A DNA stretch of 64,000 nucleotides from Shigella phage ESh33: the sequence record ON528743; one strand, 5' to 3'. The stretch's first letter is position 1; every line of letters begins with the position of its first letter. The notes under the pieces were generated by a model. The model ran no database searches and was not told where the DNA came from. It saw only the letters and a list, made by a program, of their open reading frames with translations. Both the position numbers and the translations under genes were made by a program. Shown piece after piece: positions 3,425 to 56,019 of this stretch.

Positions 3425-4708
3425 TTATTCATCAATAATAATTTTTGGTAATTTAACACCTAATAAAACAGACAAATCTGAACGACCCGCCATTTTATCC
3501 ATGTCTCCACCGTCAATTATTCTTGCTTCTTTTTCATCTTTTGCTACGGTATAAGGATTTGCTGATAAAGCATATCTAACTAATAAACCAATAGACGGTT
3601 GTAAGCTTTCTGGATCAACAACAACTTTAAATGCACCTACATGTTCAGGGTCATCTAAGTCGAGACCTTCTGTATACGGAGCATAGAAAATTGATCCAAC
3701 AATTTCTTTTTCACCGATATTTTCTACTACACCAACGATTACATAATCTAATGGGCTGTTAGTATCGCAATAAAGCGGTAAACCATTAGCTAAGAATCCA
3801 TAGGCATTTTGTGAAAGATATTTATCATCTTCTGGTTTATGTTTTAACCAACCTGATGCAGCAAGAATCGCAGCGGCACGAGCAGAAGCAACACAGAACG
3901 TTGCTGTATAAGTTGATTCTTTTTGGATATGCGAAACCATTTCACACACCATTCGGTATAATGAACGACCAGCTTCAGGTGCAGATGCATAACTCAAATC
4001 AATGAATCCAGTATCAGTAATTCCTGTAACTTTATAGCGTTTTGACACTGTAATCAAAGACTGCAGAATATCTTTATTGATTTCATCTGCCATTTCGGTT
4101 GCAAGCAAATCTTCCAAGAAATTAGGAGCATCGAATCCATTTGCTTCTAAATCTTGTGCTAATTCAACTGTAATGCCAGTTTTAAGTTTACGAGATTTAA
4201 CTGCGGTTTGCCATTTATTAATCTGGAATCTAGCATCCGCAATTTCACTATCAGAGCTTTCAAATTTGCTTGTTGATGCTGCATCAGAAAATAGACGAAC
4301 CTTTAAAAGAACGATTGCAATCTGAAGAGCTAACTCTAAGTCGCTTTCTTCAATATCAGCAAATGGTGTATCTTCTAATACTTTATAAACGATATTATTA
4401 TATTTGAATAAATCGCCTTTATTGAGAGTTAATTTAGACTCTTCTGTTAATTCTGTGATTTGTTCTCGGTCTACATATCCAGCTTCGCCAGCATAAGTAG
4501 CACCAGTTTTAAATGTAAATTCATTGTCTGGGTTAAGGTATTTGATACCATAAAAAGCAGCAACAGGTTGATTAGTTCTTTGCGTTGCTACAATGTCAGA
4601 ATATATTAATTTAGTGGTAGCGCGAGTCAAAGCAACGAGATTTGGGCGACCGATTGAGTTGCTATTCGTTGTGGTTGATTCGCGCAGAAGTTCGTTGATT
4701 TTAGCCAT
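3425..4708 (-). CDS. 24: head vertex protein gp24
   Basis: 427 aa, capsid-fold paralog of gp23; T4 position and length. Confidence 0.9.
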   Translation of the reverse strand: MAKINELLRESTTTNSNSIGRPNLVALTRATTKLIYSDIVATQRTNQPVAAFYGIKYLNPDNEFTFKTGATYAGEAGYVDREQITELTEESKLTLNKGDLFKYNNIVYKVLEDTPFADIEESDLELALQIAIVLLKVRLFSDAASTSKFESSDSEIADARFQINKWQTAVKSRKLKTGITVELAQDLEANGFDAPNFLEDLLATEMADEINKDILQSLITVSKRYKVTGITDTGFIDLSYASAPEAGRSLYRMVCEMVSHIQKESTYTATFCVASARAAAILAASGWLKHKPEDDKYLSQNAYGFLANGLPLYCDTNSPLDYVIVGVVENIGEKEIVGSIFYAPYTEGLDLDDPEHVGAFKVVVDPESLQPSIGLLVRYALSANPYTVAKDEKEARIIDGGDMDKMAGRSDLSVLLGVKLPKIIIDE

Positions 4709-12797: not shown

Positions 12798-15938
<3,141 letters not shown>

Positions 15939-15979
15939 GATTTCTCCTAATCTGGGCTTTAATTAGTTTATAATATTTA

Positions 15980-17681
<1,702 letters not shown>

Positions 17682-51400: not shown

Positions 51401-51576
51401 ATAGTTTTGAGTTACAATACGAAGTGTTACGTGAGCTTGATAATTTAATTGAACTCGCTGTTAATAAAGGTTTTGCCATTGGAATCGGTCAAAAAGATAC
51501 TGGTCATTTAACTATGGAAATATTTAAGCAAAAGCGAATTATTTTAAAACTCCTGGAAATTAATATACGAGTCTAA
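51397..51576 (+). CDS. hypothetical small protein (59 aa)
   Basis: ATGA overlap with previous stop; below track cutoff; followed by a 62-codon open frame without ATG. Confidence 0.45.
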   Translation: MNSFELQYEVLRELDNLIELAVNKGFAIGIGQKDTGHLTMEIFKQKRIILKLLEINIRV

Positions 51577-51761
51577 GTAAAGAACAAAAAGATAAATTGT
51601 TTGAGCTTATCCATGAACTTCTAGATGAGCATACAGAAGCAAACACCTTTTATGATGAATATGGCCCGCTATCTCCCGAACAGCAGGAAGAATTTGCTGA
51701 TCGGTTTGATAAGAAAGAAAACGAATTAATAGCTTATGTGAATACGCTTTAAGAAGGTGAT

Positions 51762-52343
51762 ATGGCGAGTTTAATTTTTACTTATGCAGCAATGAATGCT
51801 GGAAAATCTGCTTCTCTTTTGACTGCTGCACATAATTATAAAGAACGTGGAATGAGTGTATTAGTTCTTAAGCCTGCTATTGATACTCGCGATTCTGTCT
51901 GTGAAGTCGTTTCTCGCATTGGAATTAAGCAGGAAGCGAATATTATTACAGATGATATGGATATTTTCGAGTTCTATAAATGGGCTGAAGCACAAAAAGA
52001 TATTCATTGCGTATTTGTAGATGAAGCTCAGTTTTTAAAAACTGAACAAGTGCATCAATTGAGCCGAATTGTTGATACATATAATGTTCCTGTTATGGCT
52101 TATGGATTAAGGACTGATTTCGCTGGAAAATTATTTGAAGGTTCTAAAGAACTTTTAGCGATTGCAGATAAACTTATTGAACTAAAGGCAGTTTGTCATT
52201 GCGGTAAAAAAGCGATTATGACAGCTCGATTAATGGAAGATGGAACACCAGTTAAAGAAGGTAATCAAATCTGTATTGGTGATGAAATTTATGTTTCTTT
52301 GTGTAGAAAACATTGGAATGAATTAACTAAAAAGCTCGGTTAG
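51762..52343 (+). CDS. tk: thymidine kinase
   Basis: 193 aa; P-loop AAMNAGKSASLL; close to T4 Tk as recalled; RBS AAGGTG. Confidence 0.9.
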   Translation: MASLIFTYAAMNAGKSASLLTAAHNYKERGMSVLVLKPAIDTRDSVCEVVSRIGIKQEANIITDDMDIFEFYKWAEAQKDIHCVFVDEAQFLKTEQVHQLSRIVDTYNVPVMAYGLRTDFAGKLFEGSKELLAIADKLIELKAVCHCGKKAIMTARLMEDGTPVKEGNQICIGDEIYVSLCRKHWNELTKKLG

Positions 52344-52352
52344 TGCAAAAGT

Positions 52353-52360
52353 TATAAATA
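52353..52360 (+). promoter_or_regulatory. late promoter upstream of the 70-aa ORF and rI
   Basis: TATAAATA 26 nt upstream of ATG 52386. Confidence 0.55.
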
Positions 52361-52385
52361 GGTTTATCTAACTAAAGGGGTATAT

Positions 52386-52598
52386 ATGCTACAATTAACT
52401 GAAAAGCAACTTCGCAATCTTACTGTGCTTCAATTAGATGAAATTCGTAGGGAAGTTGGAAATATCATTTCAGCTTTGCGTCGAGAAGTATCACTCAACC
52501 AATCTCCGGCAGACTATACTAGATTGCGAAATTTTGAAAAATACCTTGATAAAGTTAAGGCCGTGCATCGGCATAAAGTAAATACAGGACAAAAATGA
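52386..52598 (+). CDS. small helical protein (70 aa), member of a ~60-aa paralog family
   Basis: RBS AAAGGGG; late promoter TATAAATA at 52353-52360; N-terminal LTEKQLRNL pattern shared with four downstream small ORFs. Confidence 0.55.
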
Positions 52599-52610
52599 TA
52601 GGAGGCCTTT

Positions 52611-52904
52611 ATGGCCTTAAAAGCAACGGCACTATTTGCCATGCTAGGATTGTCATTTGTTTTATCTCCATCGATTGAAGCGAATGTCGATCCTCATTTT
52701 GATAAATTTATGGAATCTGGTATTAGGCACGTTTATATGCTTTTTGAAAATAAAAGCGTAGAATCGTCTGAACAATTCTATAGTTTTATGAGAACGACCT
52801 ATAAAAATGACCCGTGCTCTTCTGATTTTGAATGTATAGAACGAGGCGCGGAGATGGCACAATCATACGCTAGAATTATGAACATTAAATTGGAGACTGA
52901 ATGA
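52611..52904 (+). CDS. rI: lysis inhibition regulator RI (probable)
   Basis: 97 aa with N-terminal signal-anchor MALKATALFAMLGLSFVLSPSIEA; adjacent to tk as in T4; RBS GGAGG. Confidence 0.7.
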   Translation: MALKATALFAMLGLSFVLSPSIEANVDPHFDKFMESGIRHVYMLFENKSVESSEQFYSFMRTTYKNDPCSSDFECIERGAEMAQSYARIMNIKLETE

Positions 52905-53287
52905 AATTCAGCGACTTTTCACAAAGTGGAAAACCTTCAAAGGCAGATGAATACTTGGGTTTATTAATGGCTGCACAAGCTTATTTTCATTCTGCACATT
53001 TTGAAACTAAAAGTTATGCTAGACACAAAGCATACGATTTTATTTTCTCCGAGTTGCCAGATTTGATTGACAAATTTGGTGAGCAGTATTTGGGGTATTC
53101 TGGTAGAAAATACACACCTTCAATTCCAGATGCTAGTAAACTTCCTACCGACACAATTAAAATGATTGATCGCATACTAGACCAATCTAACAGCATTTAT
53201 AAAGAAATGCCTCCAGCCATCCAAAGCACGATAGATGATATTACTGGAATGTTTTACCAAAGTAAGTATCTTCTTTCCCTCGAATAA
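52901..53287 (+). CDS. hypothetical protein (128 aa)
   Basis: ATGA overlap with rI; followed by terminator 53293-53316. Confidence 0.55.
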
Positions 53288-53292
53288 CATTA

Positions 53293-53316
53293 GTCTCCTT
53301 CGGGAGACTTTTTCAT
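53293..53316 (+). terminator. intrinsic terminator
   Basis: AGTCTCC-TTCG-GGAGACT then TTTTTC. Confidence 0.7.
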
Positions 53317-53324
53317 TTTACCGG

Positions 53325-53353
53325 TTTACTTTTCGTTTGAGCCGTGGTACTAT
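53325..53353 (+). promoter_or_regulatory. sigma70-like early promoter
   Basis: TTTACT-17-TACTAT, directly after terminator 53293-53316. Confidence 0.6.
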
Positions 53354-53381
53354 ACAACCATCGGATAAAGAGGAGAACATC

Positions 53382-53570
53382 ATGAAAATTGAAGCACTTA
53401 ATCAAGAAGGAAATATCTACGTCATCATTAATGGTGATTTTTTCGTCGACATGGATGAAGTTACTAGTGAAGAACTTGTAGAACTTCTTAAGAAACGTTA
53501 TAATATGTGTGATGAAGTTGCAACTCACATGGCGTGTGCAATATTCTCTCTTTCATATGTGGTGGAATAA
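53382..53570 (+). CDS. hypothetical small protein (62 aa)
   Basis: ATG 53382 with RBS GAGGAG behind early promoter 53325-53353. Confidence 0.55.
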
Positions 53571-53773
53571 TGATTAGTGTAGAGCAAGCGGATAAAATCA
53601 AGGAATTAGTGGCTTCAATTCGTAAAGCAGATGAGGAACTTAGTGACTTTGCTTGGTTTTCGTCAGGCATTGCAAATAAAGGTATTGATGAACTTGAAGC
53701 TAAAGTTGATAATGCTTTAGAAGCGTTAGATATGTTTCTTGATGAAATTATCGATCATAATACGAGAGTTTAA
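53570..53773 (+). CDS. small helical protein (67 aa), paralog family
   Basis: TAATG overlap; N-terminus [13 protein letters not shown]; track start 53534 is GTG. Confidence 0.5.
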   Translation: MISVEQADKIKELVASIRKADEELSDFAWFSSGIANKGIDELEAKVDNALEALDMFLDEIIDHNTRV

Positions 53774-53775
53774 GT

Positions 53776-53970
53776 ATGCTAACACGCGAACAGTTTGAAA
53801 AAATCATTAAATTAGCACGTGATATTGAAATAGATTCATATCAATTAGCAGTTGAGCATTGTGAAGGATATTCATACGACGGTATAGAAGCAGCTAAAAA
53901 GGATTTGGATAAATCTAAAGTTAAGTTAGTTCAATATCTTGAAATGATTAGGTGGAATAATGAAAACTGA
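53776..53970 (+). CDS. small helical protein (64 aa), paralog family
   Basis: N-terminus MLTREQFEKIIKL. Confidence 0.5.
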   Translation: MLTREQFEKIIKLARDIEIDSYQLAVEHCEGYSYDGIEAAKKDLDKSKVKLVQYLEMIRWNNEN

Positions 53971-54133
53971 AAAGCAGATGTTTTTAATGAAACTAATTGA
54001 AGAATATGCTAATGCAGTTTCTGACTATGAATGTTCTTCTCGGGAAAGAGGTACAGCTTTCGCCAAAGAAGAAATGAAAATCATGGTTGATGCTCACACA
54101 AAGCTTCAAAATTTTATTGAAAACGTCATTTAA
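53960..54133 (+). CDS. small helical protein (57 aa), paralog family
   Basis: ATG after GGTGG; N-terminus MKTEKQMFLMKLIEE; below track cutoff. Confidence 0.45.
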   Translation: MKTEKQMFLMKLIEEYANAVSDYECSSRERGTAFAKEEMKIMVDAHTKLQNFIENVI

Positions 54134-54136
54134 TGG

Positions 54137-54165
54137 TTTACAAGTTGGCAAGGTTATGGTATAGT
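54137..54165 (+). promoter_or_regulatory. sigma70-like early promoter
   Basis: TTTACA-17-TATAGT. Confidence 0.55.
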
Positions 54166-54193
54166 AATCTTGTCAACTGTCAAGGAGAAGAGA

Positions 54194-54298
54194 ATGAAAA
54201 TTTTGTTTGTTGTGTATGTGGTGATTCAATATAATTACCCAATGTTTACTTATAATCTGGTGAACAACATTATTGATATGATTCAGAGGAGTATGTAA
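54194..54298 (+). CDS. hydrophobic micro-ORF (34 aa)
   Basis: RBS AAGGAGAAG; MKILFVVYVVIQ...; TAATG coupling to next ORF; speculative. Confidence 0.3.
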   Translation: MKILFVVYVVIQYNYPMFTYNLVNNIIDMIQRSM

Positions 54299-54483
54299 TG
54301 ACAAGTGAGCAGGCTTTTAAATTAAGAGAATTAATTGAGACGTATAGTAAAGCTGTTCATACATCAACAATTATTGATGAATCAGCTTTCTCCGGACATG
54401 CTAACAAGATTAAATACAAAACTCTTATGGAAGAAGCTAAAGTAAATCTTGATTCTTATATTGAAACTTTAATTGGTAAATAA
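54298..54483 (+). CDS. small helical protein (61 aa), paralog family
   Basis: RBS GAGGAG; N-terminus MTSEQAFKLRELIE. Confidence 0.55.
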   Translation: MTSEQAFKLRELIETYSKAVHTSTIIDESAFSGHANKIKYKTLMEEAKVNLDSYIETLIGK

Positions 54484-54484
54484 T

Positions 54485-55027
54485 ATGAAAGCTGTAATTG
54501 AAACAACTGATTTGTTCGGTGACCTGGTTATCGAAAAACGTGATAATGTATACGTTCTGACGCAGGAAGACGATAGTATTACTATTCTTCCTATGGAACT
54601 GGCTGCGATTTTATCTTATGCTCCCTCAGGAGTTACCGGTGTAACTAATATTACAGGCGACCTCCAAGTTCGTTTTTATCGTGGCCTTTACGGCGGTAAT
54701 ATTGAAACTGAATTTATGTGTCTTTCTATCAACAATTGGGCAACATTCGTTGCCAAGGTGAAAGAATTCTTAGAATCTGAAACAGTCGAAACACCCGAAA
54801 AGGCTAAACTTCAATGGGCTAAAGATCGCGGTGCTAACATTATTAATCCAGTAGCTGCAAACTATACTACGACTTTGGATGTCAAGACTTCTTATGAAGA
54901 TGGCGATGTCGTACTTGTTCGCCAAAATGATGATTCTCGAGCACATATTGTCACATTTACCAAAGACGAAGCTATTGCGCTAAAGACTTATCTTGATTCT
55001 GTCATTCTAACTATGATTTCAAAGTGA
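54485..55027 (+). CDS. hypothetical protein (180 aa), paralog of 55034-55555
   Basis: ATG 54485; C-terminal FTKDEAIALKTYLDSV matches LSKSEAEAMIKYLTTV of next ORF. Confidence 0.55.
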   Translation: MKAVIETTDLFGDLVIEKRDNVYVLTQEDDSITILPMELAAILSYAPSGVTGVTNITGDLQVRFYRGLYGGNIETEFMCLSINNWATFVAKVKEFLESETVETPEKAKLQWAKDRGANIINPVAANYTTTLDVKTSYEDGDVVLVRQNDDSRAHIVTFTKDEAIALKTYLDSVILTMISK

Positions 55028-55033
55028 GGAAAT

Positions 55034-55555
55034 ATGTTTATTTCAAGTGGAAGTGGTTTAATTCGTGTTGAATTTAAAAATGACATCTTTCTTATTCAAG
55101 GAGATGATATTATTAAAATGAGTTATGACGAAATCAAGAAAATTTGTCATGCTCTTGAAAGTCATGGAAAAGTGAACGCTGTTATTGATATTGGCGATTT
55201 ATGGGTGACACTTTATGAAGTATCCGAAGGATTTAACATTGAAGATGAAAATAACATTTTAGCTATTGATAAAAGAAGTGATTTGTTTGATGTATTAAAA
55301 GTTTATGAACAGTCAAATGGCGGAAGAAAAGCTGCATTGATTTATCAAAAACCGCATTCATGTGGAACTGCTTCAATCATTTCAAATATTGAAGATGAAG
55401 TTGATACTTATATGTGTGTTTTAAAAGCTGGTGGTGACCGTCATCCGGATTTTATTTCTATTCGTCAAAACAATGGAGAAATTTCATTATCAAAATCAGA
55501 AGCTGAAGCTATGATTAAGTATTTAACAACTGTTACGCCTTCAATGAAAGGATAA
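55034..55555 (+). CDS. hypothetical protein (173 aa), paralog of 54485-55027
   Basis: RBS GTGAGGAAA; shared N- and C-terminal motifs with previous ORF. Confidence 0.55.
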   Translation: MFISSGSGLIRVEFKNDIFLIQGDDIIKMSYDEIKKICHALESHGKVNAVIDIGDLWVTLYEVSEGFNIEDENNILAIDKRSDLFDVLKVYEQSNGGRKAALIYQKPHSCGTASIISNIEDEVDTYMCVLKAGGDRHPDFISIRQNNGEISLSKSEAEAMIKYLTTVTPSMKG

Positions 55556-55557
55556 TT

Positions 55558-56019
55558 ATGATTATTAATGAAAACGCTTGGCACTATAAATTATTCAAAT
55601 TGTTTAACGATGAATGGCAACGACCTAAGACACTATGCGCATATTTTTGGTCTATTGCCATTCCTACATTTTTCGTTTCTATTTTTGGATGTGCTATACT
55701 CGTAGGGCTAACAATTATTTGTGCAGAAAGCCTACAACGTTGGCTTATTTTCGGTAGTTTATGGACTCTTATTCCATCAGCATTTATACTTGCCATTTTG
55801 TTTGTTTTACTTATTATTGGTTCATTTGTTATTCCTGCACAACTGCATGAAAAATATAAAGATTATAAATGGAAAAAGGATTATGCTTTACATGTAGAAA
55901 ATATTGATAGGGCGTATAAGGGTTTACCTCCTATTCAACCCAAGAAATCTATTATCGTCGAATTTTTAAAAGCGCGTAAAGCTAAAGTATGTCCTGTTAT
56001 TGAATATAAGGCTGAATGA
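55558..56019 (+). CDS. multi-pass membrane protein (153 aa)
   Basis: RBS AAAGGA; three or more hydrophobic helices; stop overlaps start of the nucleotidyltransferase-like gene. Confidence 0.6.
   Translation: MIINENAWHYKLFKLFNDEWQRPKTLCAYFWSIAIPTFFVSIFGCAILVGLTIICAESLQRWLIFGSLWTLIPSAFILAILFVLLIIGSFVIPAQLHEKYKDYKWKKDYALHVENIDRAYKGLPPIQPKKSIIVEFLKARKAKVCPVIEYKAE

Follow-up and report, generated by a model that had tools for sequence, protein, structure and literature searches.

We examined a 64,000-nucleotide stretch of DNA from Shigella phage ESh33 (sequence record ON528743; hereafter, the window), in which an earlier note had read five short open reading frames (ORFs) of 57-70 amino acids, beginning at positions 52386, 53570, 53776, 53960, and 54298, as a multi-copy family of helical proteins of about 60 amino acids in an early region downstream of tk. 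All five ORFs are present, and four of them are almost certainly true paralogs of the Pfam family DUF7438 (PF24219), as judged from sequence comparison: B (53570-53773, plus strand; 67 amino acids from its ATG), the ortholog of T4 MobD.4; C (53776-53970, plus strand; 64 amino acids), the ortholog of T4 MobD.3; D (53960-54133, plus strand; 57 amino acids), an intact form of T4 mobD.2a; and E (54298-54483, plus strand; 61 amino acids), which has no T4 counterpart. For these four the family stands, on the evidence of Pfam and other family models, shuffle tests, profile comparisons, and a predicted helix-loop-helix; the ORF at 52386, the homolog of T4 rI.1, falls outside it. As a family, the set is a rediscovery rather than a new one: DUF7438 is already catalogued as a Tevenvirinae family of unknown function, and its genes carry names in T4 (mobD.4, mobD.3, mobD.2a, tk.1, and tk.2). 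The overall explanation that we favor, at slightly better than even, is a DUF7438 paralog array of oligomerizing binding modules aimed at host or defense proteins. The value of the array lies in its being a testable set of five to six small, early, dispensable, and acidic hairpins, patchily distributed within the best-studied group of phages.

Each of the four ORFs matches the DUF7438 model over its full length (positions 1-57 of 57) and scores above its curated gathering cut-off of 25 bits (B, 55.1; C, 62.9; D, 56.5; and E, 57.8 bits). Database proteins bearing PF24219 are 91-100% identical to these ORFs. Since orthologs of theirs are probably part of the Pfam model, we made a further comparison between profiles of the subfamilies, each derived from database homologs. 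In hhalign, the B subfamily pairs with that of C at a probability of 84% (E = 8e-6), with that of E at 82% (E = 1e-5), and with that of T4 Tk.1 at 78%, while C pairs with Tk.1 at 84%; probabilities between linked subfamilies span 73-84% overall. The D and E subfamilies align at 29%, over the N-terminal third only. Hidden Markov models (HMMs) trained with one subfamily left out return the omitted B, D, or E in each case as the top non-training match among the 1195 ORF segments of the window (E = 0.017-0.03). Pairwise Smith-Waterman scores, compared with those of 1000 shuffles, give z = 4.0 for B and C, 5.8 for B and E, and 6.2 for D and E (0/1000). Of the four, D diverges most and has the least independent support.

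Pairwise identities among the four proteins are just 18-30%, the pairs B-D, C-D, and C-E are not significant by themselves, and BLASTP returns no alignment between D and E, for which reason Smith-Waterman shuffles and profiles were used in its place. Such figures might suggest that the similarity reflects the convergence or composition of amphipathic helices, with no common descent, yet this is very improbable given that the profile matches are full-length and collinear at E values of about 1e-5, that the linking pairs beat their shuffles at z = 4-6, and that the members have in common their length, a start motif, and a C-terminal motif. The genes also adjoin in one operon, where an identical 13-nucleotide junction, GGTGGAATAATGA, comprising the ribosome-binding site, the upstream stop, and the start, precedes both B (53561-53573) and D (53951-53963). 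Control small helical ORFs from the same region fail to match the family members in the shuffle test and in the HMM scan.

The highest-scoring DUF7438 protein of the window lies outside the five ORFs. The homolog of T4 Tk.2 (51567-51752, plus strand) matches the Pfam model at 69.6 bits (E = 2.9e-19) and, on this score, is a true fifth member that was overlooked in the first reading. Its position, together with those of Tk.1 and Tk.2 in T4, is upstream of tk, so the family is not restricted to the region downstream of that gene, as had been supposed. T4 Tk.1 and Tk.2 were themselves found by a wider HMM and score 55.6 and 65.4 bits against Pfam DUF7438. In the nearest relatives, the start codon position of Tk.2 reads ATG (Shfl2, Phaginator, and T4) or GTG (G4498); in the window it reads ACG, and translation from the following start in frame, a TTG at 51597, would yield 51 amino acids without the conserved N-terminus. 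Here the gene would therefore be weakly translated or inactivated, or else the ACG is a sequencing error. The same T-to-C change also abolishes the TGA stop of the upstream gene, whose ORF gains two codons.

To place these members against those of T4, we scanned T4 at 1-49 kb, 54.5-61.5 kb, and 119-169 kb along with the 64-kb window, which we estimate to correspond to roughly 48-112 kb of T4 on the opposite strand. Across these stretches the T4 members are Tk.2, Tk.1, MobD.4, MobD.3, and MobD.2a only. The window set resembles the T4 set in genomic position, and all five of its members pass the model at 55-70 bits; it differs in adding E and an intact mobD.2a, in lacking Tk.1, and in the ACG at the Tk.2 start. 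The mobD.2a gene of reference T4 (NC_000866, locus 3497-3678, minus strand) encodes 38 amino acids and is what a frameshift has left of D, with the C-terminal half surviving in another frame. A second record under the name Tequatrovirus T4 (OZ035787.1) has all 57 amino acids of D at 100% identity. T4 has no room for E between mobD.2 and mobD.1; the ESh33 protein matches phrog_4859 at E = 8e-39.

Beyond T4, Citrobacter phage Merlin (NC_028857) has clear DUF7438 copies upstream of tk, among them an unannotated 61-amino-acid ORF between Merlin119 and Merlin118 (locus 4370-4552; 47.9 bits), and its Merlin109, after rI.-1, gives a weak match below the cut-off (18.6 bits). We also considered T4 PseT.1 (75 amino acids; locus 15912-16136, minus strand) and rejected it as a member, as its E value of 0.025 with the family HMM is marginal and it has no Pfam match. 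PseT.1 shares with the family the N-terminal pattern MISxxQFxxLxxLI and the C-terminal pattern DLxDYIQSLV, and these could mark either very distant kinship or a chance resemblance.

The rI.1 homolog (52386-52598, plus strand; 70 amino acids) had been counted as a member on the strength of its N-terminal motif and its hydrophobic C-terminal helix. The likeness between LTEKQLRNL in rI.1 and TSEQAFKLREL in the family is superficial, and although rI.1 and B are both short helical hairpins in structures predicted with AlphaFold2 (AF2) and give a shuffle z of 2.55, this is the highest value that rI.1 reaches against any member. It has no DUF7438 match at E ≤ 1, is unlisted at E ≤ 10 when all 1195 ORF segments of the window are scanned with the family HMM under --max, and aligns in hhalign at 2.1% with the family profile and at no more than 3.1% with each subfamily. 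All 21 of its homologs examined carry PF26904 (21/21); rI.1 is 97% identical to one of them (P0092), matches phrog_1826 at E = 1.6e-37, and, judged by this close homology, belongs to the PF26904 family. The two groups also carry opposite charges, rI.1 being basic with an isoelectric point (pI) of 10.19 and the DUF7438 members acidic at pI 4.2-6.1, and the predicted architecture of rI.1 differs from that of B in having one more helix, at the N-terminus, and a turn of 2 residues. In T4, RI.1 is a late protein while MobD.3 and MobD.4 are early (PMC9697503 supplement). A single family that includes rI.1 is effectively refuted, and the N-terminal motif read in it is a coincidence.

The AF2 model of B, the sole member modeled, is a helix-loop-helix (helices at residues 4-31 and 37-66) with a predicted local distance difference test score (pLDDT) of 75 and a predicted template modeling score (pTM) of 0.53. 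To this extent, as a predicted two-helix hairpin in one member, the helical nature ascribed to the family is borne out. A Foldseek search of the PDB with this model yields no significant match. Its nearest neighbors are ROP, EsxAB, and designed bundles, all of them generic hairpins; the ROP and Esx matches lie at E values of 0.9-2.9, ROP entries giving 0.9-2.8 with template modeling (TM) scores of 0.47-0.59 and Esx entries TM scores of 0.45-0.80. ROP (Rom of ColE1) and the WXG100/EsxAB proteins are themselves helix-loop-helix proteins of about 60 amino acids that form four-helix bundles on dimerizing. DUF7438 stands apart from both in that the fold matches are non-significant, there is no sequence relationship, and the WXG motif is missing, and the likeness may be taken as a hint to the family's mode of action rather than as membership.

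An alignment of 24 diverse members contains no conserved stretch of 7-10 columns. Leu13 alone is invariant, and Glu5 and Leu53 are nearly so. The shared N-terminal pattern, M-[IL]-[ST]-x-E-Q-hydrophobic, is probably a helix N-cap with a hydrophobic staple, and the other conserved positions appear to form hydrophobic stripes on both helices that are broader than a lone hairpin could bury. Because the conserved set consists of a capping motif and these stripes, it looks like a set of fold or oligomerization determinants, not a catalytic or ligand-binding site, and since a lone 60-amino-acid hairpin would be unable to bury such a stripe, oligomerization is indicated. The degree of acidity varies among members: B (pI 4.27), Tk.1, and Tk.2 have pI values of 4.2-4.3 and net charges of -9 to -10, and C, D, and E are mildly acidic with net charges of -1 to -3.

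The range of the family is narrow: among 1.84 billion representative proteins, only 29 matches reach E ≤ 1e-3, of which about twenty are proteins of about 60 amino acids; the remaining long matches, with multiple short stretches, are taken to be coiled-coil noise. All of the short matches look T4-type, and the distant members map to other Tevenvirinae. Copy number differs from phage to phage, with orthologs of E in only 191 phage records and those of D in 491 (489 near full length), against 565 for the 3.9-kb stretch around them. Within the B subfamily, whose 45 cluster representatives are 60-70 amino acids long, substitutions and internal indels are concentrated at residues ~24-44, in the inter-helix loop (window positions 53640-53700), and the C-terminal 20 residues are invariant. 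The family is accessory and fast-evolving, as seen in the patchy occurrence of E and D, the frameshift of D in T4, the mutated start of Tk.2, and the variable loop of B.

Work on T4 provides information on the timing and necessity of these genes. For MobD.3 and MobD.4 both RNA and protein are early, and for Tk.1 and Tk.2 the RNA is early and the protein middle (PMC9697503). The T4 mobD.5 promoter, mapped by primer extension, is active 3 min post infection and gives a RegB-insensitive transcript (PMC1702504). A spontaneous T4 deletion extending from nrdC.11 to mobD.3 is viable (PMC9825161). In the window, the members belong to early operons of closely packed, overlapping genes that follow a terminator and early-promoter cassette.

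As a mechanism we propose, tentatively and at somewhat under an even chance, that the DUF7438 proteins are stoichiometric binding modules against host or defense proteins, diversified by duplication. The hairpins would most likely assemble, with themselves or with neighboring paralogs, into four-helix bundles of the ROP or Esx kind, and these bundles would act stoichiometrically by binding host or host-defense proteins during early infection. Gene duplication, together with divergence of the surface and the variable loop, would then provide each paralog with a separate target. Such a role would fit the early timing, the dispensability, the acidic hairpin, the conservation of fold determinants only, the patchy presence, and the one variable loop. 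The suggestion in the earlier note that such proteins may be inhibitors of host proteins is compatible with the early expression, the dispensability, the conservation pattern, the patchy distribution, and the variable loop. Small early host-takeover and anti-defense proteins, such as Gp5.9 and Gp0.4 of T7 and Arn and AsiA of T4, are small, early, dispensable, often acidic, and stoichiometric binders; we detected no homology between them and DUF7438, and the comparison is one of analogy only. Should the DUF7438 proteins indeed prove to be host-takeover or anti-defense binders, the array would supply several inhibitors of new specificity.

Several observations weigh against this explanation. The leave-one-out recovery of B, D, and E is weak at its E values of 0.017-0.03, with a training set of three narrow subfamilies, and C is not recovered by the corresponding HMM among the 1195 ORF segments of the window. 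For D, the connection to the remaining members comes chiefly from E and from the Pfam model, and that model may include orthologs of D. The structural model of B is of moderate confidence and describes a single chain, and the variability of its loop could reflect an absence of constraint rather than an arms race. The literature that could be searched yielded no function for mobD.2a, mobD.3, mobD.4, tk.1, tk.2, or DUF7438, and a 2026 PNAS paper on toxic phage products leaves the DUF7438 genes unmentioned.

The hairpins might instead serve processes of the phage itself, either as partners or modulators of the adjacent y05I/MobD.1 putative transcription factors or as obligate heteromers of paralogs in the manner of EsxA/EsxB. 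We regard this as unlikely. The genes adjoin and overlap and seem to be coupled in translation, two y05I-like paralogs follow immediately downstream, and Esx-type heterodimeric hairpins are among the fold matches, all of which would suit such a role; the paralogs nevertheless occur independently of one another (E in 191 records vs D in 491), T4 has several hairpins but one y05I gene, and the Merlin members adjoin tk, with no y05I annotated in the ~8-kb stretch examined.

A further alternative, and to our minds a distinctly improbable one, is that the proteins are nucleic-acid mimics or binders: the strongly acidic B, Tk.1, and Tk.2 could imitate DNA and so block restriction or nucleases of the host, or the proteins could be ROP-like RNA binders. 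T7 Gp5.9 and T4 Arn offer analogies for DNA mimics directed against nucleases and restriction. The pI values of B, Tk.1, and Tk.2, the presence of ROP among the fold neighbors, and an early timing suited to anti-restriction point in this direction, and the only mildly acidic character of C, D, and E points away from it, as does the lack of a significant fold match. A PADLOC scan also gave nothing meaningful, its library being one of defense, not anti-defense, proteins. Binding modules aimed at host or defense proteins remain the explanation that we prefer for the DUF7438 array.

Outside the family, rI.1 has a predicted fold of its own interest. Its AF2 model, built from its own alignment, has a pLDDT of 93 and consists of a short helix and a tight hairpin, and in a Foldseek search of the PDB all of the top 50 matches (50/50) are ribosome chains of the size of ribosomal protein uL29, with TM scores of 0.75-0.89. 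Seven of the matched chains could be paired with chains named uL29 by a sequence search with E. coli RpmC. The predicted fold of rI.1, a short N-terminal helix followed by a long hairpin, is thus uL29-like in these models. Proof of the identity of rI.1 and uL29 at the level of sequence was sought and not obtained. Pfam PF00831 (Ribosomal_L29) gives no match at E ≤ 10 for 17 members of the rI.1 family, a PDB profile search with rI.1 is negative, and HMM searches between rI.1 and L29 are negative both ways, the L29 HMM ranking rI.1 8th among the 1195 window ORFs in an alignment that is out of register. The signals that do appear are weak ones from hhalign and pairwise comparison. The hhalign probability of rI.1 and L29 is 5.9%, with a score of 17.6 that exceeds those of all 100 column shuffles (maximum 16.7) and an aligned segment that falls in the structurally equivalent place; pairwise z is about 5 against Firmicute L29, in a collinear full-length alignment, and 0.7-3 against E. 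coli L29.

On the basis of the models, rI.1 may represent a phage-borne copy of uL29 that has diverged greatly, or a mimic of it. Such a protein would dock at the ribosomal exit tunnel, at the site where uL29 and uL23 receive the signal recognition particle (SRP), trigger factor, and SecYEG, and from there would tune the co-translational targeting of the neighboring secreted antiholin RI and also of the holin T. RI.1 acts with RIII in modulating lysis inhibition, and its overproduction is toxic (PMC2962797); a position at the exit-tunnel site would explain both observations. In a survey of virus-encoded ribosomal proteins, the term uL29 is absent from the main text (PMC6375957). The joint reading, in which rI.1 is a diverged uL29 copy or mimic that tunes RI targeting and, separately, the DUF7438 proteins are diversifying anti-defense binders with an arms race recorded in their variable loop, strikes us as unlikely to hold in full. 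That a gene linked genetically to lysis inhibition should have a predicted ribosomal-protein-like fold is, we suggest, of modest upside.

Our analysis also corrects two misleading database labels: the product names 'helicase loader' for E and 'molybdopterin-guanine dinucleotide biosynthesis protein MobD' for MobD.4 stand in RefSeq and PHROG ('helicase loader' being phrog_4859), yet there is next to no chance that they are correct, as DUF7438 is the sole Pfam family above cut-off for both ORFs, NCBIfam gives nothing above cut-off for either (and for E no match at E ≤ 1), the T4 helicase loader is gp59, a protein of 217 amino acids encoded elsewhere in the genome, and T4 'mobD' names an HNH homing endonuclease, which makes the molybdopterin label on MobD.4 a name collision. 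In these Pfam and NCBIfam searches E shows no similarity to a known helicase-loader family such as T4 gp59, DnaC/DnaI, or lambda P. As far as sequence evidence reaches, both labels are refuted.

The window derives from a Tequatrovirus (T4-like phage). From 51700 to 55600 it shares 98.5-98.7% identity with phages that include vB_EcoM_G4498, and the 3.9-kb stretch that spans tk to the MobD.1-like genes has matches in 565 phage records. Gene order and names were taken from the annotated T4 record (NC_000866) and the G4498 RefSeq record (NC_054918). By these annotations, tk (51762-52343) follows the Tk.2 homolog, and the basic rI.1 homolog, with its predicted uL29-like fold, is followed by rI (52611-52904) and rI.-1 (52901-53287; DUF5856). 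The MobD.5 homolog (53382-53570, plus strand; 62 amino acids), the first gene of the operon, matches phrog_3024 at E = 2e-44, and the hydrophobic MobD.2 homolog (54194-54298, plus strand; 34 amino acids), between D and E, matches phrog_3515 at E = 9e-22; neither is a member, with no DUF7438 match in either case. Downstream of E lie two tandem paralogs of the MobD.1/y05I type (54485-55027 and 55034-55555; PF24449 and PF24448), the y05I family being one of 'putative transcription factors' with two tandem copies here and one in T4, and then a hydrophobic ORF of 153 amino acids (55558-56019) ahead of nrdC.11. The mobD homing endonuclease gene, the source of the T4 gene names, is absent from the present phage.

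An intrinsic terminator follows rI.-1 at 53292-53319 (plus strand), where the terminator scan finds the stem-loop AGTCTCC-TTCG-GGAGACT (53292-53309) and a subsequent T-run; the G4498 annotation has a terminator at the same place. Immediately beyond it, upstream of mobD.5, an early-promoter-like site (53324-53353, plus strand) can be read from the sequence as GTTTAC, 15 nucleotides, and TGGTACTAT, with 8/12 consensus matches, which is under the scan threshold of 9. A second early-promoter-like site (54137-54165, plus strand), with TTTACA, 17 nucleotides, TATAGT, and an upstream TG, scores 10/12 in the promoter scan. Composite cassettes of a stem-loop and an early promoter (PeSLs), of the type seen here, have been described as points of recombination in T4-like genomes (PMC2839356, PMC4122927). 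The genes are tightly packed, with the stop/start overlap TAATG at both mobD.5/B and mobD.2/E and 11 nucleotides shared by C and D. At the DNA level, repeats among the paralogs are limited to the short junction described above and to codon-level echoes, with no recent duplication. A 29-nucleotide direct repeat of 76% identity connects the region that encodes the C-terminal end of E (54446-54474; NLDSYIETLI) with that for the C-terminal end of the first y05I paralog (54990-55018; YLDSVILTMI), and may reflect chance or a shared helix.

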